Below are positions 4,631 through 59,576 of a stretch of DNA of 64,000 nt, one piece after another (position 1 is the first letter of the stretch; each line of letters begins with the position of its first letter). The stretch comes from Escherichia coli (GTDB taxonomy: Bacteria; Pseudomonadota; Gammaproteobacteria; Enterobacterales; Enterobacteriaceae): assembly GCF_016026235.1 (NCBI RefSeq), contig NZ_CP065613.1; one strand, 5' to 3'. The translations under genes and the position numbers were made by a program. The notes under the pieces were generated by a model, which did not search any database, had not been told where the DNA came from, and was given only the letters and a program-made list of their open reading frames with translations.

Positions 4631-6894
4631 CCAGGCCAGTAACGTTATCAGAACCCCATTTCAGCCAGCATACCCTGAACAAGTATGCATCGCTGATGGC
4701 GCAGGGGAACGGCTATCTTGGGCTTCGCGCCAGCCATGAAGAAGATTACACGCGCCAGACGCGAGGGATGTATCTGGCGGGGCTGTATCATCGGGCGGGA
4801 AAAGGTGAAATCAACGAACTGGTGAACCTGCCTGATATCTTGGGGATGGAGATTGCCATAAATGGTGAGGTTTTCTCGTTATCCCGCGAAGCCTGGCAGC
4901 GTGAACTTGACTTTGCCAGTGGAGAATTACGCCGTAGCGTTGTCTGGCGTACCAGCAACGGCACAGGTTACACCATCGCCAGCCGTCGCTTTGTTTCGGC
5001 AGACCAACTGCCGCTCATTGTGCTGGAAATCACTATTACGCCACTGGACGCCGACGCGTCAGTGCTGATTTCAACAGGTATCGACGCTACGCAAACCAAC
5101 CACGGTCGCCAACATCTCGACGAAACCCAGGTGCGGGTGTTTGGTCAGCATCTGATGCAGGGGATCTACACCACCCAGGATGGACGCAGTGATGTGGCCA
5201 TCAGCTGTTGCTGTATGGTGAGCGGTGATGTGCAGCAATGCTATACCGCCAAAGAGCGCCGTTTGCAGCAACATACCAGTGCGCAGCTTCATGCAGGCGA
5301 GACAGTGACGTTGCAAAAACTGGTGTGGATCGACTGGCGGGATGACAGGCAAGCCGTTTTAGACGAGTGGGGCAGCGCGTCGCTTCGCCAGCTTGAAATG
5401 TGCGCGCAGCAGAGTTACGACCAACTTCTTGCAGTATCAACAGAAAACTGGCGTCAATGGTGGCAGAAACGTCGTATCACGGTAAATGGCGGCGAAGCGC
5501 ACGATCAGCAAGCGTTAGATTATGCGCTTTATCATCTGCGCATCATGACGCCTGCCCACGACGAGCGCAGCAGCATTGCGGCAAAAGGCTTAACCGGCGA
5601 AGGCTACAAAGGCCACGTTTTCTGGGATACAGAAGTATTTTTGTTACCGTTTCATCTGTTTAGCGATCCGACGGTTGCCCGAAGTTTACTGCGTTATCGC
5701 TGGCACAACTTGCCAGGCGCGCAGGAGAAAGCGCGACGCAACGGCTGGCAGGGCGCGCTATTTCCGTGGGAAAGCGCGCGCAGCGGCGAAGAAGAGACGC
5801 CGGAATTTGCCGCCATTAACATTCGCACCGGGCTGCGGCAAAAAGTGGCCTCGGCGCAGGCGGAACATCATCTGGTGGCCGATATCGCCTGGGCGGTTAT
5901 TCAATACTGGCAGACCACGGGGGATGAAAGTTTCATTGCGCATGAAGGCATGGCGCTACTTCTGGAAACTGCAAAGTTCTGGATTAGCCGCGCGGTGAGG
6001 GTTAACGACCGTCTGGAAATTCATGATGTTATTGGGCCTGACGAATATACCGAACATGTCAATAATAACGCCTTCACCAGCTATATGGCGTATTACAACG
6101 TCCAGCAGGCGCTGAGTATTGCCCGCCAGTTTGGCTGTAGCGACGATGCGTTTATCCATCGCGCCGAAATGTTCCTTAAAGAACTGCGGCTGCCAGAAAT
6201 TCAGCCCGACGGCGTTTTGCCGCAGGATGATTCGTTTATGGCTAAGCCGGCGATTAATCTGGCGAAATACAAAGCGGCGGCGGGGAAGCAAACCATTCTG
6301 CTGGATTATTCACGCGCAGAAGTGAACGAGATGCAAATCCTCAAACAAGCTGATGTGGTGATGCTCAATTACATGCTGCCGGAGCAGTTCTCAGCGGCAT
6401 CGTGTCTTGCCAATCTGCAATTTTATGAACCGCGCACTATTCACGACTCGTCATTAAGTAAAGCAATCCACGGCATTGTTGCCGCACGCTGTGGCCTGCT
6501 GACCCAAAGTTATCAGTTCTGGCGCGAGGGGACTGAAATCGATCTTGGTGCTGATCCGCATAGTTGTGATGATGGTATCCATGCTGCCGCAACTGGCGCT
6601 ATCTGGCTGGGGGCGATTCAGGGTTTTGCCGGGGTGAGCGTGCGTGACGGTGAATTGCATCTCAATCCGGCGTTACCTGAGCAGTGGCAACAGTTGTCTT
6701 TCCCTCTGTTCTGGCAGGGCTGCGAATTACAGGTCACGCTCGACGCGCAGCGTATTGCGATTCGAACTTCTGCGCCCGTTTCACTGCGTTTGAACGGGCA
6801 GCTTATATCCGTGGCTGAAGAATCTGTTTTCTGTTTGGGTGATTTTATTTTGCCCTTCAATGGGACCGCTACCACACATCAGGAGGATGAATGA
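4627..6894 (+). CDS. ycjT: kojibiose phosphorylase (glycoside hydrolase family 65)
   Basis: 755-aa ORF; GH65 size and sequence; overlapping start/stop with neighbours. Confidence 0.9.
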
Positions 6895-40587: not shown

Positions 40588-41523
40588 TTATTTCACTTCA
40601 ACCACATTCAGCCGTAACTCATCCAACTGATTTTCATCTTCTTCTGGCTGCCAGCCCGCCGGTTGTAGTGGGATCTCTTCGCGATCAAACGCCAGATCAC
40701 CCCCGTTAACCACTTCAGAACCGTGGGTGATGCCTTTGAAATCGAACAGGTTGGTATCGCACAGATGCGACGGCACCACATTCTGCATCGCGCTGAACAT
40801 CGTCTCGATACGCCCTGGATAACGTTTATCCCAGTCCCGCAACATGTCAGCAATCACCTGACGTTGCAGGTTAGGCTGTGAACCGCACAGGTTGCACGGA
40901 ATAATCGGGAACGCTTTTGCATCGGCAAATCGCTGAATATCTTTCTCGCGGCAGTAGGCCAGCGGACGAATAACGATATGTTTGCCATCATCGCTCATCA
41001 GTTTCGGAGGCATACCTTTCATCTTGCCGCCGTAGAACATATTTAAGAACAACGTTTGCAGGATATCGTCACGATGGTGGCCCAACGCGATCTTCGTCGC
41101 CCCCAGTTCCGTTGCGGTGCGATAAAGGATACCGCGACGTAGCCGAGAACACAGTGAGCAAGTGGTTTTGCCCTCTGGAATCTTCTCTTTCACGATACCG
41201 TAAGTGTTCTCTTCAACAATCTTGTACTCAACGCCCAGCTTTTCAAGATACTCGGGCAGAACGTGTTCCGGGAAGCCCGGTTGCTTTTGATCGAGGTTAA
41301 CAGCCACCAGCGAAAAATTGATTGGCGCGCTTTGCTGCAAATTGCGCAGAATCTCCAGCATGGTATAGCTGTCTTTACCCCCGGAGAGGCAAACCATGAT
41401 GCGATCGCCTTCTTCAATCATATTGAAGTCAGCAATGGCTTCGCCCACGTTACGACGCAGACGTTTTTGTAATTTGTTCAGATTGTATTGTTCTTTCTTT
41501 GTAATTTGTTGATTTTCTTGCAT
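40588..41523 (-). CDS. ttcA: tRNA 2-thiocytidine biosynthesis protein
   Basis: 311-aa ORF with PP-loop SGGKDS and CxxC pairs; followed directly by the prophage integrase. Confidence 0.9.
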
Positions 41524-41574: not shown

Positions 41575-42810
41575 CTACGATAACCGCGCATTCAACATGG
41601 CTATCTGTTCGTCGTTCATGTCATCAATCCACATACCGTAAATTTCATACACCATTTGCGCAGTTTCATGCCCCATCTGGCTGGCTATAAATGCCGGGTT
41701 CGCTCCTGCCGTCAACAGCCAGCAGGCAAAAGTATGTCGCGTATGGTACGGATTACGGCGGCGAATACCAGCACGTTTTACTGCTGCATTCCATCTCGCA
41801 CCCAAACTGCTTACCGAGTAATAAGGTTTCTGTTTTCCGTTACACATCCTGGGCATGAAAACAAAATGCAGTTTTTGCTTTTCGGTTCTGCCGTACTCCC
41901 GATGATAAAAAGTGATTTCGCTTTTGCGATGATGCCCGGTCAGTTTGTATTGCTCCTTCAGTGCTTCAAGAGCTGGCTGTAGTAATGTTACCGTCCGGAT
42001 CCCGGCATTTGTTTTTGGGGGACCGAACATATCAAGTATCGTCAGGTTTCTTCTGACATTCACAATTCCCTTCTCGAAATCCACATCCTCCCACGCCAGA
42101 GCTGCCAGTTCCCCGTGACGAAGCCCGGAGTAAACGGCAAATTTCCACAAGTTTTGGCTCTGTCCTTTTTCACTTTCCATTAATGCATTGAATTCTGTTT
42201 TAGATAACGGGTCAGGCTTTATTCTGTTTCGCTGTAATTTTTTTACTCCTTCAAATGGTTTGGTTGATATAAATCCCGACTGATACGCAAAACGTAACAG
42301 CGAACAGAGCAGGGCGATATAGTTATCAACTGTGCGCACGGTTCTTCCTTTTTTGTTGGATCTTGGATTATCCAGGTAAAGCGTTTCTCCATGCAGCAGT
42401 TCATTCCGGTAGTTTAAGATATCGCTATAACGAATATATGATATCGGGGTACTTTCACAAATTATTATTCTGAGTGTTTTTAATTGTGATTTCGTTTTCT
42501 TCATTGTGTTTGTTGTTAACTCTGTCTCTTTAATTTTTGTCCAGATATCACAAAGCTCCCCGAACGTTTTTATGACTCTCGTTGTCACCATTTTTGCCCC
42601 AGTGCTGGACTGGGGAAAACGTCTTAAATACTCAAATTCACCGGAGTTTATTTCATGAACTATCAGCGCTCTTAAATTTCCGGCCTTTTTAATATTACTG
42701 TTTGTAATCTCCCAGCCTTTTAATGTTTCCCGACATCGTTTTCCTCGAAACATGAACCAGATGCGAATGTTTCTACCTCTAATCTCGACACCTGTTGGTA
42801 ATTTAGACAT
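41575..42810 (-). CDS. intR: prophage tyrosine integrase (Rac IntR-like)
   Basis: 411-aa ORF; C-terminal catalytic region with HTRHTFA and terminal Y-containing box. Confidence 0.9.
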   Translation of the reverse strand: MSKLPTGVEIRGRNIRIWFMFRGKRCRETLKGWEITNSNIKKAGNLRALIVHEINSGEFEYLRRFPQSSTGAKMVTTRVIKTFGELCDIWTKIKETELTTNTMKKTKSQLKTLRIIICESTPISYIRYSDILNYRNELLHGETLYLDNPRSNKKGRTVRTVDNYIALLCSLLRFAYQSGFISTKPFEGVKKLQRNRIKPDPLSKTEFNALMESEKGQSQNLWKFAVYSGLRHGELAALAWEDVDFEKGIVNVRRNLTILDMFGPPKTNAGIRTVTLLQPALEALKEQYKLTGHHRKSEITFYHREYGRTEKQKLHFVFMPRMCNGKQKPYYSVSSLGARWNAAVKRAGIRRRNPYHTRHTFACWLLTAGANPAFIASQMGHETAQMVYEIYGMWIDDMNDEQIAMLNARLS

Positions 42811-42811
42811 A

Positions 42812-43051
42812 TCATGAGTCTTTGATAAACTGATTTATCTTTGGATAGTTGTACCAGATAATCCCTCGTTTGCTGTCTGGCTTACCTAAAGGAGATACTC
42901 GTTTGAAGTGGAAGCCCTCCACCCAACAGTTCTGGCGGTATGCTTCAATTTGTCTGGCCCCCAGACCAGTGCGAAGCATCAGGCCGTATTCAACCATCCA
43001 CTCTTCATTAAAGATTACTTGTGCCATCGCATCACCTCTGGCAGGCGCCAA
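42812..43051 (-). CDS. phage excisionase
   Basis: 79-aa ORF immediately upstream of int; Xis-like sequence. Confidence 0.75.
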
Positions 43052-43126: not shown

Positions 43127-43348
43127 TCACGAGGACTGAAGTTTCTCGCAATTAAAATTTATCAGTTTTACTTTCTGCTCTCTGGAAACGCCTGCTTCTT
43201 TTTCCCCTGAGAGCATTTTTTCGCATTCTGATTTCGTTAGTTTTGTCTTTGAGTATCTTGTCCAGCTGGCAGGAGAACCACCTTCCTTTTCAATAGTGGC
43301 TGTAATTTTATACATGAACACCTCCATTAATATTTTCCCAAAATGCAC
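43127..43348 (-). CDS. hypothetical prophage protein (73 aa)
   Basis: ORF in the early-left operon, same strand as neighbours; no recognisable domain. Confidence 0.4.
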   Translation of the reverse strand: MHFGKILMEVFMYKITATIEKEGGSPASWTRYSKTKLTKSECEKMLSGEKEAGVSREQKVKLINFNCEKLQSS

Positions 43349-43354
43349 TTGGTT

Positions 43355-44452
43355 TTACACCGGAATATTCTCATCGTATCCTGCTTGTTGCGTTTCGTTT
43401 TGTGTTTGTGGATCCGGGAATGCATATTCAACGCCTTCCAGTTCAATCCATAGTGCATTACGACCAGCTTTGATTGTCGGCCAGTCCATACCTTTGATTC
43501 TTTCCCATGAGCGGGAGGTGAATGTTTTTTCCAGCAAATCAGCTTTTGCGCGTTTGGCGTCGTTACTGGTGCCCCCATGGTGCTTGTTGAGCAACTCGAT
43601 AATTTCATCAAGTGCGATTTCTTTTGCACGCTTTTCTTTTAGCCATGTCGGTGTACCGTCGTTGGCAAATAATTCACTGTTATCCCGTGAGGTATCGATG
43701 CCGAGGTGTTCACCTCCCAGGTTAAGAAACTCGATATGAGGAAGAAAGTTTTTAAATGTTGGGTTTGAAAATACCTGTCCATCAATACGGGTGGAGCGAT
43801 CTTTTAGTATTCTGGCGGTGCGCCACACCTGACCGGTTTCTATGTTCATTTGCTTCTCCATCTGGATCAGGATGGAGGGTTCATAACCGGTTTCTGTTTC
43901 TGCTTTCATTTTTATACCGGTTTTTGCCAACTGGCGTTTGCCATCATCACCTTCGAAAAAGTCATACTCATATCCTGCACGCCCGCACATAATAATGTGC
44001 GCCTGACTGTTAACAAATCGATCGGTAAAGCGTCGCCACTCCTGTTTGAGCCACGCCCAGTCTGAAAATTCCAGTCCTCGTTTACGGTTTCGGCGTCTGG
44101 CATACTCGTCGCATAATCCGGTCCAGAAGTGACTGATGGAGTCGATGATCATTACGGAACCGCTGCTTTCCGCTTCATTAATGGCTTCAAGCAGATCAAC
44201 AAACGAGCGGGTTTTTGCCGTAAATAATTCGATATTTTCCGCATCAAAGCGGGGTTTAACCCAGTCAGAGCCTGTTTCTGTGTCCAGAAACATTACCGGG
44301 CGGTTACCAGCTTCAATTCCCCGTTGCCGCATAAGCATTACCAGACCAATAGCCAGTTCGCTTGCTGTGTAGGTTTTGCCGTCGCCAGCAAACCCCATAA
44401 TTCCTGCTTTTAGATAGGCCTGTGTGTTTATTGCTCGTTGAAAAAGCGCCAT
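43355..44452 (-). CDS. P-loop NTPase, RecA-like fold (possible Sak4-type recombination ATPase)
   Basis: 365 aa; Walker A GFAGDGKT at residues 20-27 and Walker B-like MIIDSISH; sits in the recombination-module position. Confidence 0.55.
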   Translation of the reverse strand: MALFQRAINTQAYLKAGIMGFAGDGKTYTASELAIGLVMLMRQRGIEAGNRPVMFLDTETGSDWVKPRFDAENIELFTAKTRSFVDLLEAINEAESSGSVMIIDSISHFWTGLCDEYARRRNRKRGLEFSDWAWLKQEWRRFTDRFVNSQAHIIMCGRAGYEYDFFEGDDGKRQLAKTGIKMKAETETGYEPSILIQMEKQMNIETGQVWRTARILKDRSTRIDGQVFSNPTFKNFLPHIEFLNLGGEHLGIDTSRDNSELFANDGTPTWLKEKRAKEIALDEIIELLNKHHGGTSNDAKRAKADLLEKTFTSRSWERIKGMDWPTIKAGRNALWIELEGVEYAFPDPQTQNETQQAGYDENIPV

Positions 44453-44457
44453 AGATT

Positions 44458-44757
44458 TTAGTCCTCCAAATCAATATCAACCTGGTGGTGGGCAATGGTT
44501 TCAGCCATGTACCGGATGTGTTCTGCCATGCGCTCCTGAAACTCAACATCATCATCAAATGCGTGGCTGATTGCCTGTTTATTGGCACCGTGGCGTTGCA
44601 AATGGTCGATGCAGAGCGATTCAAACAGGTGCTGAGGCAGACCTTTTTCCAGGTCGTCCGCCAGTTCCGTTTCTTTTTCTTCACGAACGATCTGCTGGTA
44701 GTGGCGAGCCCATGCCATTTCTTCAATACGATCAAAAATCGGGTAAGCGCTCATCAC
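44458..44757 (-). CDS. hypothetical prophage protein (99 aa, acidic)
   Basis: ORF with ATGA-type overlap to the upstream gene; no recognisable domain. Confidence 0.4.
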
Positions 44758-45106
44758 TGGTCACTCCAAAATTTTCAAGCTTGTTGGCAATCATCATTGC
44801 GATGTCAGGGATTGCAGGCGCATAGGCTATGCACGCAGGATTCGCACATAAACCGTAAACCGCCGCAATCAACACCTGTTTTTTCCAGTTGAGTTCATCT
44901 TCGCCAGTTTCATTATTGCTATCATTATGCTGATCGCTGCCAGCGTTCTCCGGTAACAAATCATCAGCTTTTCCGTTTTCTTCGGCTCTTCTTCCTGTGC
45001 TTCATCTGGTTTTTTTTCGTCAAAAGTTTCCTGATAAGTTGCGTCTCCCATCACCGCGCCACAGTCAGGGCAGTTATCCTCGCCAGTCTGATTGCAGGGT
45101 GTTCCC

Positions 45107-46400
45107 CTGAGGGATCCCCAGAAAATTTAGTAAACCATTATCATATTGGTATACCGTTGCTGTAGAACTTTCAGCCCTGCGTCAAGTGACAGTGTGTTTA
45201 GTATGAGTGGAGAATGTCGAATCACATTCTCCGCCAGTTTTAATAACGAGATGACTCGCCTGTGCTTCACTGTATTTGCCTGATATTTATGATGTATCCC
45301 TTTGTTTTCCAGGCTGAAACCGCTTAACCACATAATGATACTGGCTAATGTTGCGATCAGACTCAATACCGTGACCCGCCCGGATGAATGACTGGCACCA
45401 AACCGTAGTCCAAATCCCCAGCGAGGATTTTTTTCATCCCTGAAATTTTGCTCAATTTGCATTCTACGGCTGTATAATTTCATTACCTGTTTTGGCGAGA
45501 ACTCAGTACTGTTTGTGAAAATAAACCATGGTGATTTCCCGGCAGTACGAGCTTTAGCCGTCACCGATGGTCTGGTTGCTCTTTCCTTCGAGCGTTTAAA
45601 TCTACGACCTTTAGGCTTACTTTTATAAAGATAAAAATGCCCTTCATGTTGTGCATTTTTATCTCGACCCAGCAGGCCTTCACCTAAATAAATTGCTGTC
45701 GTTGATGCTTTTGTGCCTGAGTCCGACACCTTTTCCCAGCCATTACCAACATTGTAATAATGATTGCCCAGTACCCGGCAAATATAGGTCCAGCCACGGG
45801 AGCGGAGCTGTTGGAACCATCGCCCCTGAAAACCGGCATCTGTAATAACAATGACATCAGTCCCGGGGGAAAAGCACTCAGCAAGCGATTCCAGAAAACG
45901 CTCATGTACATCTGCATTCGCTGTCTGTGATGATGGAACGACACAACTCATCAACGGTAAAGAACGCCCGTCACATGCCAGGCTTGCCCGCAAAAGCTGA
46001 AAACGAGAGGCATGATAAGCACTCCAGTCAATGAGTATCACAACACGAGACATTCCCCGCGTAATCTTTTGGGTAATTCGCTGAAAAATGGTGGAAACCT
46101 CATTTTGCAAATGTCGATTCCCCAACAGTCGATCCACCCGCTTTATTTTGTTTTTAACTGATGCCGTACCGGTTAAATGACGCCCGATACTGGTAAGTGT
46201 GAGGGAAGCGCCATTTATTACAGCATTAGTTGCGTCAATCAGTGATTTTTGACGGTAAAGATGCAAAGGGGCCAGTATGTTGTTAAGGAAATTTTGGCAT
46301 AATGAACGTGCAGGCATAGTGGTGATCTCCTTGAAATTGTTAGCACAATCAATTAGATCACATCTCACTATGCCTGTCTTGTTTTCTGGGGATTCCTCAG
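45107..46400 (-). mobile_element. IS4-family (IS10-like) insertion sequence, copy 3
   Basis: Same inverted repeats; 10-bp direct repeat GGGTGTTCCC on both flanks; 1294 bp. Confidence 0.85.
45127..46317 (-). CDS. IS10-like transposase (IS4 family), intact
   Basis: Translation identical to the copy 2 transposase. Confidence 0.85.
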   Translation of the reverse strand: MPARSLCQNFLNNILAPLHLYRQKSLIDATNAVINGASLTLTSIGRHLTGTASVKNKIKRVDRLLGNRHLQNEVSTIFQRITQKITRGMSRVVILIDWSAYHASRFQLLRASLACDGRSLPLMSCVVPSSQTANADVHERFLESLAECFSPGTDVIVITDAGFQGRWFQQLRSRGWTYICRVLGNHYYNVGNGWEKVSDSGTKASTTAIYLGEGLLGRDKNAQHEGHFYLYKSKPKGRRFKRSKERATRPSVTAKARTAGKSPWFIFTNSTEFSPKQVMKLYSRRMQIEQNFRDEKNPRWGFGLRFGASHSSGRVTVLSLIATLASIIMWLSGFSLENKGIHHKYQANTVKHRRVISLLKLAENVIRHSPLILNTLSLDAGLKVLQQRYTNMIMVY

Positions 46401-47998
46401 GGGTGTTCCCTCCTCCGGTTCGCTGTTCTGGTGCTGTTTATCTTCAGTCTGTCGCACTTCATTTTCCGTTTTTTTGACTTCATTTGAGGAGATATGATGA
46501 CCGGGAATCCATTTCGGATCATTCGGGTCGCTAATCCCTTCAACAAATTCTCCGCGAGAGGCAGCCAGTAATTTGTCTGCATCGACAGGATTTTTGGGCG
46601 GAATGTTTTTCCGGGCTTCATGGAGTTCTGCCCGCAGTTCCTGATATTTCTCATCAACAGCATTTACCTGTGACTGAGCATCCAGCGGCTGCGTGTCCTG
46701 ATGATGTTCAGTTGCATCCGGTTCCACTGTTTCAGCCGTTGCCTGTTCATCTGCCATTGCGCAAGATGGTTGCGGTTTTTCTTCATCATCCTGTTTTCCT
46801 TCTTCTGTTACTCGCTGCGGCATCGGGGCAGAGGAGCGACCGCAGGCAATATCCACGATTTCCGGATCAGGGTTGGCATGATCGGTTTCAGTCAGTACCT
46901 TGTTCAGATATTCAGTGACGTGCGCGGGGATGACCTCGATACCAATCGGTGCTTCTTTCACTGACGCAACCACGATGGCGCGGGAATAATCCATCCCGCC
47001 AGGCATGGTGATGAATTTGTCGCGGAAAACAGAAAAGGGCGGTTTATTTTCAGTGATAATTTCCTCAATGCGTTTAGCGTGTGCCGGATGAAGATTATAA
47101 ATATCCACGTCCATTGAACGGGCCAGTACGCCAGTGGCTACGTCGCGCGCCAGCGACGTCAGATCGTGGACGAAACCTTCGCCGCGATCGGTGAGGTTCC
47201 CGCCGCCAGCATTAGCACCGGAAGCCGTGCGAGTGATACGCGAAACACGATTTCCTTTCATCCACTCTTTTGTCAGCAGACCGCGATCGGTGTAGTTGGC
47301 ATCCAGATATGCTTCGAAAAAAGCAGTCATCAGTCCCAGATTTGAATTGCCAGGATTAGGGAAAACTTTGTCAGTATCACGCACGAGTTTGTGGAGGTCG
47401 CGAATCTCCAGCGGGTCGAGCAGACTGGTTTTATGCGAAACAGCCAGAGCAGTAACAGCCGGTAGTTCTTCATCCCGAGCAATGTGTAATGCCTGGAGTT
47501 CGTCGCGTGAAACGTGCGTTACCGGTTTTTCGCTGCCGTGTTGCGCAAGCCAACGAATGGGCAGTTCCTGACCGGAAACTGGCAGGAGCATGTTCTCCTC
47601 AATTTCTGTCATGTCTTCGCCGTTGACGTTGGTATTGTCAGTGCTGGCTGGTTTGTCCTGAACAGAGGGAGAAGATGCGATAAATACCATTGTGATGCCA
47701 TCTTCCCCGCCTTTTTCGTAACGGTTGCAGAATTCCGTATCAAACACGCCTTCTGGTGGGAGGTCATCAACAACGGGCAAATTGACGCGAACAGGTTTTT
47801 TAAAGTCATCTTCATCGTAGCCAGCATCGTCAATCGCAACAGCACCACGGGAGATGGCAATGGATAATTTTTTCGCTTCAGCCCAGTAAAAACCGCCTTT
47901 AATACCGAGGCGTTTTCTTACTTTGTCATTTTTTGCTTCGTAATACAGTGGGTAAACTTGTTTATCGGTGCTCATTGTTTTTTAACCTCAACTCATAT

Positions 47999-48667: not shown

Positions 48668-49212
48668 TTATTTTAAGGAAAGCAACTGCTCTACGGTCAT
48701 GTTTTTAATTGCGCCCCGGTTTACAAGAGTCCAGCCCTGTTTTTCCAGATAAAACCGGAAAGTCTCCAGGGTACAGACCAGTGCGCCATCAGGAACGGTT
48801 TCGGTGAATTCGACATTGCCGAATTTGTCGAAGTGAACAACCAGAGTGCGACCATCACCCGGAATCATCTTGTCAGCAGGTGGGGTGTTATTCTGGCGCA
48901 GTTCGGCCTCCATGCGGTCGAACTCAGCAATGTAGGCTTCCTTGAATGTGGCGGCTTTTTTGCCCGTGAAGCCCATCACCAGGAAAACGAAGCCGTTTTT
49001 GGTGATTTGGTAGGCGTTATAAGAATTGCCGCGGTGTTCGAATTTAACCCGCGAAAAGTTGCTGGTTAAAAATAGTTCAGAACATTCGAGGGATTCTATT
49101 TTTTGAACAACATGGTGATGCTGCTTGCCAAAAAACTCAGCAATCGAAATAGAAGTAGTGACGGCGCGACCATTTTCGATGGTTACGTCAGGGTGAGAAA
49201 GGGTAGTAGCCA
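48668..49212 (-). CDS. Rha-family phage regulatory protein
   Basis: Start at MATTLSHPDV with gagga RBS; Phage_pRha-like block GRAVTTSISIAEFFGKQHHHVVQKIESL. Confidence 0.7.
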
Positions 49213-49914
49213 TAATGACATCCTCAAGTGATAAGTTAATTAACTCACCAGCAGAGGTGCTAATCTCATGGGTGGTGAGACGCACAGGGTTAGCACTACC
49301 GGTCACTCGAGAACCCGGCCAGCCTTGCGGCTGCCCCGCACGCCTCACCATAATTTGAATGTGGCTGTGCATTACGCATAAAAAAACCGCTTCAGCGCGG
49401 TTATGCGCTCGAGTAACTTTCGGGGTGCTAATCCCGGCACCCGTTTTATGAGGTGCAGGTGCACTATAATTCCACCCGTTCTGGTTTTCAATAGCTACAT
49501 TCAACATTTTCTCTTTCCTTTCATCACCGAAGTGAATTTTGTGATGCGGTGCCTGGTGCCTCCAGGTGACGTTAACCAGTTAACAATTACAGTCGGCTTT
49601 CCCACCCAAAACAATAAGGACTAACATGACTTTTAACTGTGCCGCGTGCGCTTAGCCGCATTCACCGCATCACAAAATTCACTTTAAAAAGGGCGGACAT
49701 CAGCCAGCAATTAAACCGATGCCGCCAACTGGTACTTCACACAGCAATGTCGTTATTTACAACCGGAAGCGCACTCCCACCATTTAAATTTCACAGACAA
49801 GACCGACTCTTTATGAATACCGGAAATGCGCCTTCGTGTTGTGCCCGGTTTTATTTCACCACCTCCGGGCTTTGGTGGTATCTTTACTGAAGTTCTCACA
49901 CAACCAGTAAGGAA

Positions 49915-54475: not shown

Positions 54476-55623
<1,148 letters not shown>

Positions 55624-58976: not shown

Positions 58977-59576
58977 ATGGCGCATATACAACTGGTCAAA
59001 CAAACCTCTTCCGGATTACTTCTCCCGGCGACGCCGGAGAGTTGCGATTTTTTGCATCAAATCAAAATAGGTGAGTGGATACACGCAGACTTTAAGCGTG
59101 TGCGTAACTACGCATTCCACAAGCGTTTTTTCAAACTCCTGCAACTGGGATTTGATTACTGGACTCCGGTCGGTGGGGCGATCACGCCTCGCGAACGAAA
59201 ACTGGTATCAGGCTTCGTTGATTACCTGTGCGAATCAGTAGGTCGGGAACACACTCCAGCCCTGAGTGATGCCGCAGAGCAATACCTTAATACAGTTGCG
59301 ACATGCAGAACCCGGGATACGGCATTGCTAAAGTCGTTTGACGCTTTCCGCGAGTGGGTAACCATTCAGGCCGGATTTTACACCGAGCATATTTATCCTG
59401 ATGGTAGTCGTGGGCGCAGGGCAAAATCTATCGCATTTGCGAACATGGACGAAACCGAGTTTCAGCAGGTTTATAAATCTGTACTGAATGTGCTGTGGAA
59501 CTGGATCCTGTTCCGTAAATTTTCCTCTCCGGAACAAGTCGAAAATGTGGCCGCGCAGCTACTGGAGTTTGCGTAA
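58977..59576 (+). CDS. hypothetical nin-region prophage protein (199 aa)
   Basis: ORF directly upstream of the YbcO-like gene. Confidence 0.5.
   Translation: MAHIQLVKQTSSGLLLPATPESCDFLHQIKIGEWIHADFKRVRNYAFHKRFFKLLQLGFDYWTPVGGAITPRERKLVSGFVDYLCESVGREHTPALSDAAEQYLNTVATCRTRDTALLKSFDAFREWVTIQAGFYTEHIYPDGSRGRRAKSIAFANMDETEFQQVYKSVLNVLWNWILFRKFSSPEQVENVAAQLLEFA

Follow-up and report, generated by a model that had tools for sequence, protein, structure and literature searches.

A mosaic Rac-family recombination module in an Escherichia coli prophage, with a nuclease-less recE, a lambda-type gam and a RecA-fold ATPase as candidate recombinase

Which genes serve recombination in a Rac-family prophage whose recE lacks its nuclease domain and is followed by no recT? 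The question is raised by a 64-kb stretch of E. coli contig NZ_CP065613.1 (64,000 nucleotides, here called the window), E. coli/Shigella-like in character, in which a swapped and inactivated recombination (Rec) module had been predicted. As judged from its genes and their order, a Rac-family lambdoid prophage is integrated at ttcA, and the region, the 3' half of its early-left operon, carries a mosaic Rec module. The genes are transcribed in the order recE-N (the N-terminal part of recE), gam, RecA-fold ATPase, DUF1187/rcbA (with RalA antisense to it), xis, int; those of the module are all on the minus strand and run leftward, in the direction of xis/int, so that the module constitutes the distal part of the early-left operon. 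On balance, we think it probable that this is a mosaic Rac-family Rec module with a history of two swaps and that Gam and the ATPase form a recombination pair, in which we infer the role of the ATPase. The finding is an instance of the well-known mosaicism of lambdoid Rec modules, together with decay by an insertion sequence (IS) and a frameshift. The features of the module, in the order of transcription, are the following.

46401-47975, minus strand: recE-N 5' fragment, codons 1-525 (NF007259, phrog_607, alignment to K-12 RecE)
45107-46400, minus strand: ISEc60-family (IS4-like) IS, 1,294 bp (inverted repeats, duplication, transposase profile)
45127-46368, minus strand: transposase open reading frame (ORF) of the IS (NF033591, IS4-family)
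44732-45106, minus strand: recE-N 3' fragment (zinc-ribbon remnant, acidic linker, NETGE end, 54-aa tail)
44458-44757, minus strand: gam, homolog of the lambda-type Gam host-nuclease (RecBCD) inhibitor (phrog_259)
43355-44452, minus strand: RecA-fold P-loop ATPase of 365 aa (Pfam AAA_24, PHROG 1366), the candidate recombinase of the module
43127-43348, minus strand: DUF1187/rcbA (ydaC) homolog (phrog_5753, NF007283), likely start ATG at 43315
43131-43309, plus strand: RalA antitoxin small RNA (Rfam RF02694, 207 bits against a gathering score of 170, full length)

The called ORF of 535 aa (46368-47975, minus strand), whose last 10 codons are the IS end with a stop at 46368, had been predicted to match the non-catalytic N-terminal part of Rac RecE, and this was borne out. 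It matched NCBIfam NF007259, "exodeoxyribonuclease VIII" (877 profile positions), along positions 1-523 with an E value of 7.9e-295, its 980 bits falling short of the curated equivalog cutoff of 1269, and it matched phrog_607 with an E value of 4.5e-225. Pfam Exonuc_VIII (PF06630) covered residues 52-189. After removal of the IS in silico, the identity to K-12 RecE residues 43-561 was 78%, and RecE homology did continue across the IS, as proposed, the reading frame being restored once the IS and one copy of its target duplication were deleted. The homology stopped at ...NETGE, at most about 25 residues from the start of the RecE nuclease domain (residues 564-866; PMC11611040), and the shifted frame ended at a stop at 44732-44734 that overlaps the start of gam. 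RecE residues 588-866, in the nuclease domain, had no tblastn match anywhere in the window, and neither did RecT, Bet, Exo, RalR, the single-stranded-DNA-binding protein SSB or Abc2. The gene thus ends at 44732 without an exonuclease domain and is not followed by recT, as the original prediction had stated; gam and the ATPase gene come next instead. What remains of recE-N in the window is about 590 N-terminal recE codons, split by the IS and out of frame after a 1-bp deletion.

The lack of a nuclease domain is not simply a matter of decay: relatives carry an intact form of 646 to 682 aa, which is not the product of an IS or a frameshift. In two E. coli loci with the same module and no IS (L001 and L002), recE-N is an unbroken ORF of 646 codons, which PGAP calls a pseudogene solely for falling short of the length of RecE. 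The inducible Shigella phage 75/02 Stx carries an intact 682-aa recE-N-plus-tail gene directly upstream of gam-bet-exo, and DNA similarity revealed the same architecture in POCJ13, PhiR5_2 and phiSTEC1589-Stx1c. The tail is a conserved hydrophobic stretch of 54 aa after NETGE (about 44735-44902), its final codons overlapping the gam start, with a hydropathy peak of 1.72 (Kyte-Doolittle, 19 residues). Between lineages, its codons differed by 12 synonymous versus 8 non-synonymous changes over 46 codons; the tail's conservation does not extend to the acidic linker that precedes it. In a dedicated DNA search, 146 of 5,426 complete E. coli genomes had the tail, and DNA searches also detected it in four distinct Stx phages. 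As to its origin, tblastn against phages came back empty, probably because of low-complexity masking, and a protein word search returned eight entries only, namely, seven short tail-bearing fragments and one weak match to Gam. Judged by these comparisons, the nuclease-less recE-N with its tail is a real gene form. That it is intact, with a conserved tail of its own, in functional Stx phages argues for a nuclease-independent role, and RecE-N with its hydrophobic tail might, as a secondary possibility, be an autonomous phage protein whose function does not depend on any nuclease. Nuclease-less "RecE-2" proteins are known from lambdoid early-left operons and have been given no role (PMC12315714, Genome Res 2025). 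They resemble the window gene in being related to RecE, in lacking the nuclease domain and in their early-left position, but they are only distant relatives of Rac RecE (PMC12315714), whereas the window recE-N is a close relative fused to a specific 54-aa tail.

The gene after recE-N had been described as encoding a 99-aa acidic protein. The ORF is present and intact, but its identity had been missed: it matched phrog_259 with an E value of 5.5e-54, residues 2-98 aligning to profile positions 1-97 of 98, that is, over the full length. The protein counts 99 aa from a GTG start and 98 aa from an ATG at 44754, and an identical protein is annotated as "host-nuclease inhibitor Gam family protein" in E. 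coli loci. At the DNA level, the gene was 84 to 88% identical to gam of lambda and of Stx phages and 91% identical to gam of a gam-bet-exo variant of the module (L003). The 99-aa ORF is, by homology, a lambda Gam homolog and a predicted RecBCD inhibitor, and the replacement module would thus consist of an anti-RecBCD protein and an ATPase rather than of an anonymous pair. The last 8 or so codons of the recE-N tail overlap the first 7 to 8 codons of gam in a different frame (44732-44757, minus strand), and in phage 75/02 Stx the recE-N/gam overlap is ATGA; the overlap suggests that gam is translationally coupled to recE-N. The view of the module as inactivated held for recE-N, which is broken by the IS and the frameshift, but gam and the ATPase gene have remained intact, at 100% identity to their counterparts in E. 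coli.

A module swap had been proposed as well; the swap is real, but a single event proved too simple, since comparison of the loci showed a history of two nested swaps, with junctions at gene boundaries. In the first, the ancestral RecE nuclease domain and recT were replaced at the ...ETGE boundary by the short conserved tail and a lambda-type gam-bet-exo, and in the second, in a rarer lineage, bet-exo-ralR was exchanged gene-for-gene for the ATPase. Last, in this genome, an ISEc60-type IS and a 1-bp deletion hit recE-N and left gam and the ATPase gene intact. The commoner variant, found in the E. coli loci L003 and L004, has the order recE(N+tail)-gam-bet-exo-ralR-DUF1187-xis-int. The upstream junction of the second swap falls within the 5-nt spacer that separates gam from the next gene, the window and L003 being collinear up to ...TAAAA and diverging at the next start codon. 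The downstream junction falls just upstream of the start of DUF1187/rcbA, a retained Rac-type gene, where K-12 has ralR. The gam-ATPase-DUF1187 block occurred in 9 of 5,426 complete E. coli genomes with an identical ATPase protein, in prophages with different integrases and at no fewer than three attachment sites (near yebY, near yfaA and, in the window, at ttcA). The case shows how Rec modules are rebuilt by swaps at gene boundaries, from RecET to Gam-Bet-Exo to Gam-ATPase.

The downstream junction also accounts for an antitoxin without a toxin. RalA lies antisense to the DUF1187 gene, inside its coding region, while the ralR toxin gene had no match in the 64-kb window and homology to K-12 ends where ralR would begin. 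On this comparison, RalA is an orphan antitoxin that persisted when the module swap removed ralR.

The 365-aa protein had been predicted to be a RecA-like P-loop ATPase of the AAA_24/Sak4-like kind, and the ORF is indeed intact and matched Pfam AAA_24 over residues 14-187 (E, 1e-13). This was its only Pfam match, with no hit to DnaB_C or any other helicase family. Among the PHROGs, it matched phrog_1366 (E, 1e-79), labeled "unknown function," and weakly phrog_124, "Sak4-like ssDNA annealing protein" (E, 1e-8); NCBIfam and PADLOC searches gave no match. The protein harbors a Walker A motif, GFAGDGKT (residues 20-27), the motif FLDTETGS (residues 55-62), a Walker B motif, IIDS (residues 101-105), and a conserved loop of low confidence, KMKAETETGYEPS (residues 181-193). 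Walker A, Walker B and the KMKAETETGYEPS loop are invariant across the family, as are F55 and D57-S62, position 56 being L or I. We take FLDTETGS to recall the IDTEG motif of Rad51 and the IDAE motif of RecA, and we infer that the KMKAETETGYEPS loop is L2-like. The AlphaFold model (mean pLDDT, 83.6) has a RecA/Rad51 fold, and its top structural matches were all recombinases. Residues 222 to 349, approximately, constitute an additional conserved helical C-terminal domain. Neither profile nor structure searches placed the protein in a replication or packaging family. Family members are 60 to 88% identical, ranging from Enterobacteriaceae to Pseudomonas, Achromobacter, Roseateles and Aquabacterium, with 60 to 75% identity between those of Gamma- and Betaproteobacteria; the ATPase family is large, very conserved and widespread in proteobacterial prophages.

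The neighborhoods of the ATPase gene in other genomes point to Gam and SSB. A Gam homolog was encoded directly upstream in 43 of 47 enterobacterial viral loci, these Gam proteins being 38 to 100% identical to that of the window (38 to 46% in most), and close relatives of the ATPase follow gam directly in Cronobacter, Salmonella and Atlantibacter phages. The inducible Cronobacter phage phiES15 encodes an 85% identical ATPase in the order kil-gam-ATPase, at the position of the Rec module, and has its own O/P replication genes and a terminase but no other annotated annealing protein. The ATPase gene was immediately followed by an SSB gene in four Achromobacter loci and in 8 of the 33 distant viral loci, and in three of the former (L007, L008 and L010) the ATPase stop overlaps the SSB start; the fourth Achromobacter locus ends inside the SSB gene. 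Within 6 kb of the ATPase gene in either direction, the 85 loci contained no Bet, RecT, Exo, RecE nuclease domain or Abc2. Clustering of neighbors and PHROG scans of 20 neighboring ORFs revealed no consistent nuclease or other partner beside the distant homologs, the scanned ORFs being mostly unknown or unrelated (one HNH-like protein, one integrase and several methylases). In three loci with an 89% identical ATPase (L020-L022), the preceding gene keeps only a Gam-like N terminus (MNAYLTYDRIED..W) and then diverges completely; in L020, this ORF (5699-5983) matched the Gam hidden Markov model with an E value of 2.4e-4. The gene may encode a chimeric or alternative partner protein.

From its fold and its place in the operon, the ATPase is most likely the recombinase of the module, Sak4-like in action. 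Upon induction, Gam would block RecBCD, and the ATPase would load on single-stranded DNA (ssDNA) and anneal or pair it with complementary DNA, a task that in other lambdoid phages falls to Bet, RecT or Sak4. The host SSB here, and the cognate SSB in the betaproteobacterial relatives, would assist the ATPase, while the helical C-terminal domain may provide contacts to a partner or to DNA. The resulting recombination would serve repair and the switch from theta to sigma replication, with no dedicated phage exonuclease, as in the module type of P22 and HK620. Lambdoid Rec modules made up only of an anti-RecBCD protein and a strand-annealing protein (SAP), as well as RecA/Rad51-type annealing proteins in lambdoid modules, are recognized, and the functional type "anti-RecBCD plus SAP, no nuclease, no SSB" comprises 46 lambdoid phages (PMC12315714). 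The window module, so read, would fit this type (PMC12315714). More tentatively, and with rather less confidence than in the module as such, we propose that the PHROG-1366 ATPase could found a distinct family of phage recombinases with a RecA fold, built of the core and a novel helical C-terminal domain, whose partner would be, interchangeably, Gam (in Enterobacteriaceae) or SSB (in Betaproteobacteria); one gene would replace Bet/Exo, and Gam plus the ATPase would form a compact, exonuclease-free two-gene system. If true, a single-gene annealase/recombinase working with Gam or SSB would be a new RecA-fold branch of phage recombinases and a candidate recombineering tool.

Several observations weigh against a recombinase of this kind. 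The C-terminal domain had no informative structural or sequence match, the ATPase had no sequence-level match to any PDB chain, and PHROGs lists the family under "unknown function." SSB adjacency was seen in only about a quarter of the distant loci, the neighbors in the remaining distant loci are uninformative, and the 64-kb window contains no phage SSB. The IS may abolish expression in this prophage. Homology to HK620 Sak4 was not detectable either (BLASTP E, 0.11; hhalign probability, 0.4% and 0.65%).

Two other functions have to be weighed. The ATPase could be a RecA-fold motor of another kind: like RadA/Sms, DnaB or RSF1010 RepA, it could serve as a hexameric helicase or translocase when replication restarts or branches migrate. 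We consider this unlikely, as the gene sits exactly in the position of bet-exo, directly after gam, and the protein matched AAA_24 and no DnaB_C or helicase family; moreover, phiES15 and the window prophage both have separate genes for replication initiation and loading (O-like and DnaC-like in the window), phiES15 has no other annealing protein, and the top structural matches were recombinases throughout. Still less probable, in our view, is an accessory, moron-type function with no role in recombination, such as anti-defense or superinfection exclusion, even though lambdoid early-left regions are rich in accessory genes, some AAA_24 proteins are labeled "DarB-like antirestriction" in phage records, PHROG 1366 has no assigned function and the neighbors of the ATPase are highly variable in distant loci. 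PADLOC gave no defense-system match for any of the four proteins examined, the ATPase included, whose fold is closest to recombinases; its gene stands close to that of Gam or SSB or overlaps it, and an identity of 60 to 75% across Gamma- and Betaproteobacteria is atypical of arms-race genes.

Among the known systems, the HK620 module (Sak4/HkaL, SSB/HkaK and Abc2, in the order kil-hkaM-sak4-ssb-abc2) is paralleled by the window's Gam-plus-ATPase pair in position and presumed function. Strand annealing by Sak4 requires ATP and is enhanced by its SSB (PMC5928155). Both modules lie in the early-left operon between kil and xis/int, and each pairs an anti-RecBCD protein with an ATPase that has a RecA fold and Walker A/B motifs, with no phage exonuclease (PMC5928155); both ATPases belong to Pfam AAA_24 and weakly matched phrog_124 (E, 1e-8 for the window protein and 1.9e-5 for HK620 Sak4). 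However, the partner is Gam in the window and Abc2 in HK620, a phage SSB is missing from the window, and the window ATPase has 365 aa with a helical C-terminal domain of about 125 aa, whereas Sak4 has 226 aa and is core-only. Sak4 proteins are defined as core-only proteins of fewer than 290 residues (PMC2896510), a size that the 365-aa protein with its extra domain exceeds. Because of this length and extra domain, and because no homology to HK620 Sak4 was detectable, we did not file the ATPase as a Sak4; it probably represents a separate family within AAA_24 that works like Sak4.

The remaining comparisons illustrate the mosaic. With the lambda Red genes of L003-type prophages and of phage 75/02 Stx, the window shares a lambda-type gam, an upstream recE-N with a tail overlapping gam and the downstream series DUF1187-xis-int, but it lacks Bet, Exo and RalR and has one ATPase gene instead, after the same 5-nt spacer. 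With the RecE/RecT system of K-12 Rac, it shares the ttcA site, the kind of integrase and excisionase, rcbA/RalA and the RecE N-terminal region (78%, residues 43-561), but not the nuclease domain, recT or ralR, and its RecE-N ends in an unrelated hydrophobic tail. In phiES15, where gp08 (gam-like) and gp07 (AAA family ATPase) form the corresponding pair, the ATPase is 85% identical and likewise comes right after a Gam homolog; the latter shares only 39% identity with the window Gam, kil rather than recE-N lies upstream, and a hypothetical protein and a methyltransferase follow. Of most interest in this locus are the conserved Gam- or SSB-associated ATPase family and the autonomous RecE-N-plus-tail protein, if it is one.

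As for the lesions of recE-N, the inserted element is an IS of the IS4 family, ISEc60 group, by its transposase, its repeats and its target duplication. Its terminal inverted repeats are 19 bp long with one mismatch, the duplication of 9 to 10 bp, GGGAACACC(C), is found at 46401-46410 and 45097-45106, and the transposase matched NF033591 with 360 bits (cutoff, 152). The IS is 100% identical to copies annotated as "IS4-like element ISEc60 family," which occur in multiple copies in those E. coli strains that have the module. The target site was intact in 11 of 12 related loci, and the insertion was present in none of the 12. The target falls exactly on a degenerate zinc-ribbon-like motif (about 45075-45106, minus strand), which reads CxxC...CPDC in K-12 RecE and in Stx phage 75/02 and CNQT...CPDC in the window lineage, intact E. 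coli copies included, one cysteine having been lost. Together with the loss of recE-N/gam translational coupling, the IS would probably impair expression of the module from pL. The consequence for this genome is small, the prophage being IS-ridden and the operon probably poorly expressed.

The frame change in recE-N, beyond which RecE residues 558-585 match in a frame different from that of residues 43-561, had been predicted near 44960. It is real but lies some 10 nt away, one A being missing at about 44969-44972 from an A5 run (AAAACGG-AAAAGC) by comparison with otherwise identical E. coli loci. The 12 related loci all have A5, so that the A4 allele was seen in none of them, and IMG/VR held no exact match to it; the change is either private to the window lineage or a homopolymer error. 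In four Shigella loci (L096-L099), a different 1-bp deletion, A8 to A7, lies about 45 nt upstream and recurs in at least 10 samples, and an S. sonnei protein fragment (P0121) implies a third kind of break in recE-N. The acidic linker is thus, by these alleles, a hotspot for homopolymer frameshifts, and the lesions fit the repeated pseudogenization typical of Shigella-type genomes. It might nevertheless be that the window frameshift is no real inactivation: the missing A could be a homopolymer error of sequencing or assembly, or the site could allow programmed or transcriptional slippage, so that some RecE-N-tail protein is still made at full length. The A5 run, the restriction of A4 to the window and the independent deletion in the A8 run, which marks the linker as slippage-prone, would all accord with this. 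We regard it as rather unlikely, given that Shigella-type genomes gather such lesions, that three different breaks of recE-N were seen, that at least the recurrent A8-to-A7 deletion must be real and that no slippery heptamer or stimulatory structure was in evidence; in any case, the IS already splits recE-N, which makes the frame irrelevant to function here. In Shigella boydii (L095, GCA_031665775.1), an identical ATPase gene lies in a remnant heavily interrupted by IS elements, four transposase genes being present within about 5 kb, and no recE-N or gam gene is called upstream, a further decay of the module in Shigella.

The left end of the prophage is marked by an integrase and an excisionase gene beside ttcA, and upstream of recE-N lie a Rha/Ant-like regulator and two small Rac-type genes. 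A scan for promoters and terminators gave no signal above the shuffled expectation.

40588-41523, minus strand: ttcA, prophage integration site
41575-42810, minus strand: Rac-type integrase, gene order the same as in K-12 Rac and PapRG-04-4
42812-43051, minus strand: Rac-type excisionase, gene order the same as in K-12 Rac and PapRG-04-4
48668-49507: Rha/Ant-like ORF, 279 aa
50853-51272: repressor, with O-like and DnaC-like replication genes to its right

Within the 5' third of the Rha/Ant-like ORF, Rfam detected a C4 antisense RNA (49268-49355, minus strand, 78.6 bits) and an isrK Hfq-binding RNA (49380-49456, minus strand, 68.5 bits), which suggests a C4-controlled antirepressor cassette of the P1/P7 type; the ORF call may be over-long at its 5' end. 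Just after the Ren-like gene of the prophage, a second transposase gene (54476-55294, minus strand; phrog_157, E, 1.9e-119) brings the number of IS insertions in the prophage to at least two. A further recombination function is encoded outside the Rec module, in the nin region, by a gene for a NinB/Orf homologous-recombination mediator (58977-59576, plus strand; phrog_319, E, 8.2e-70).

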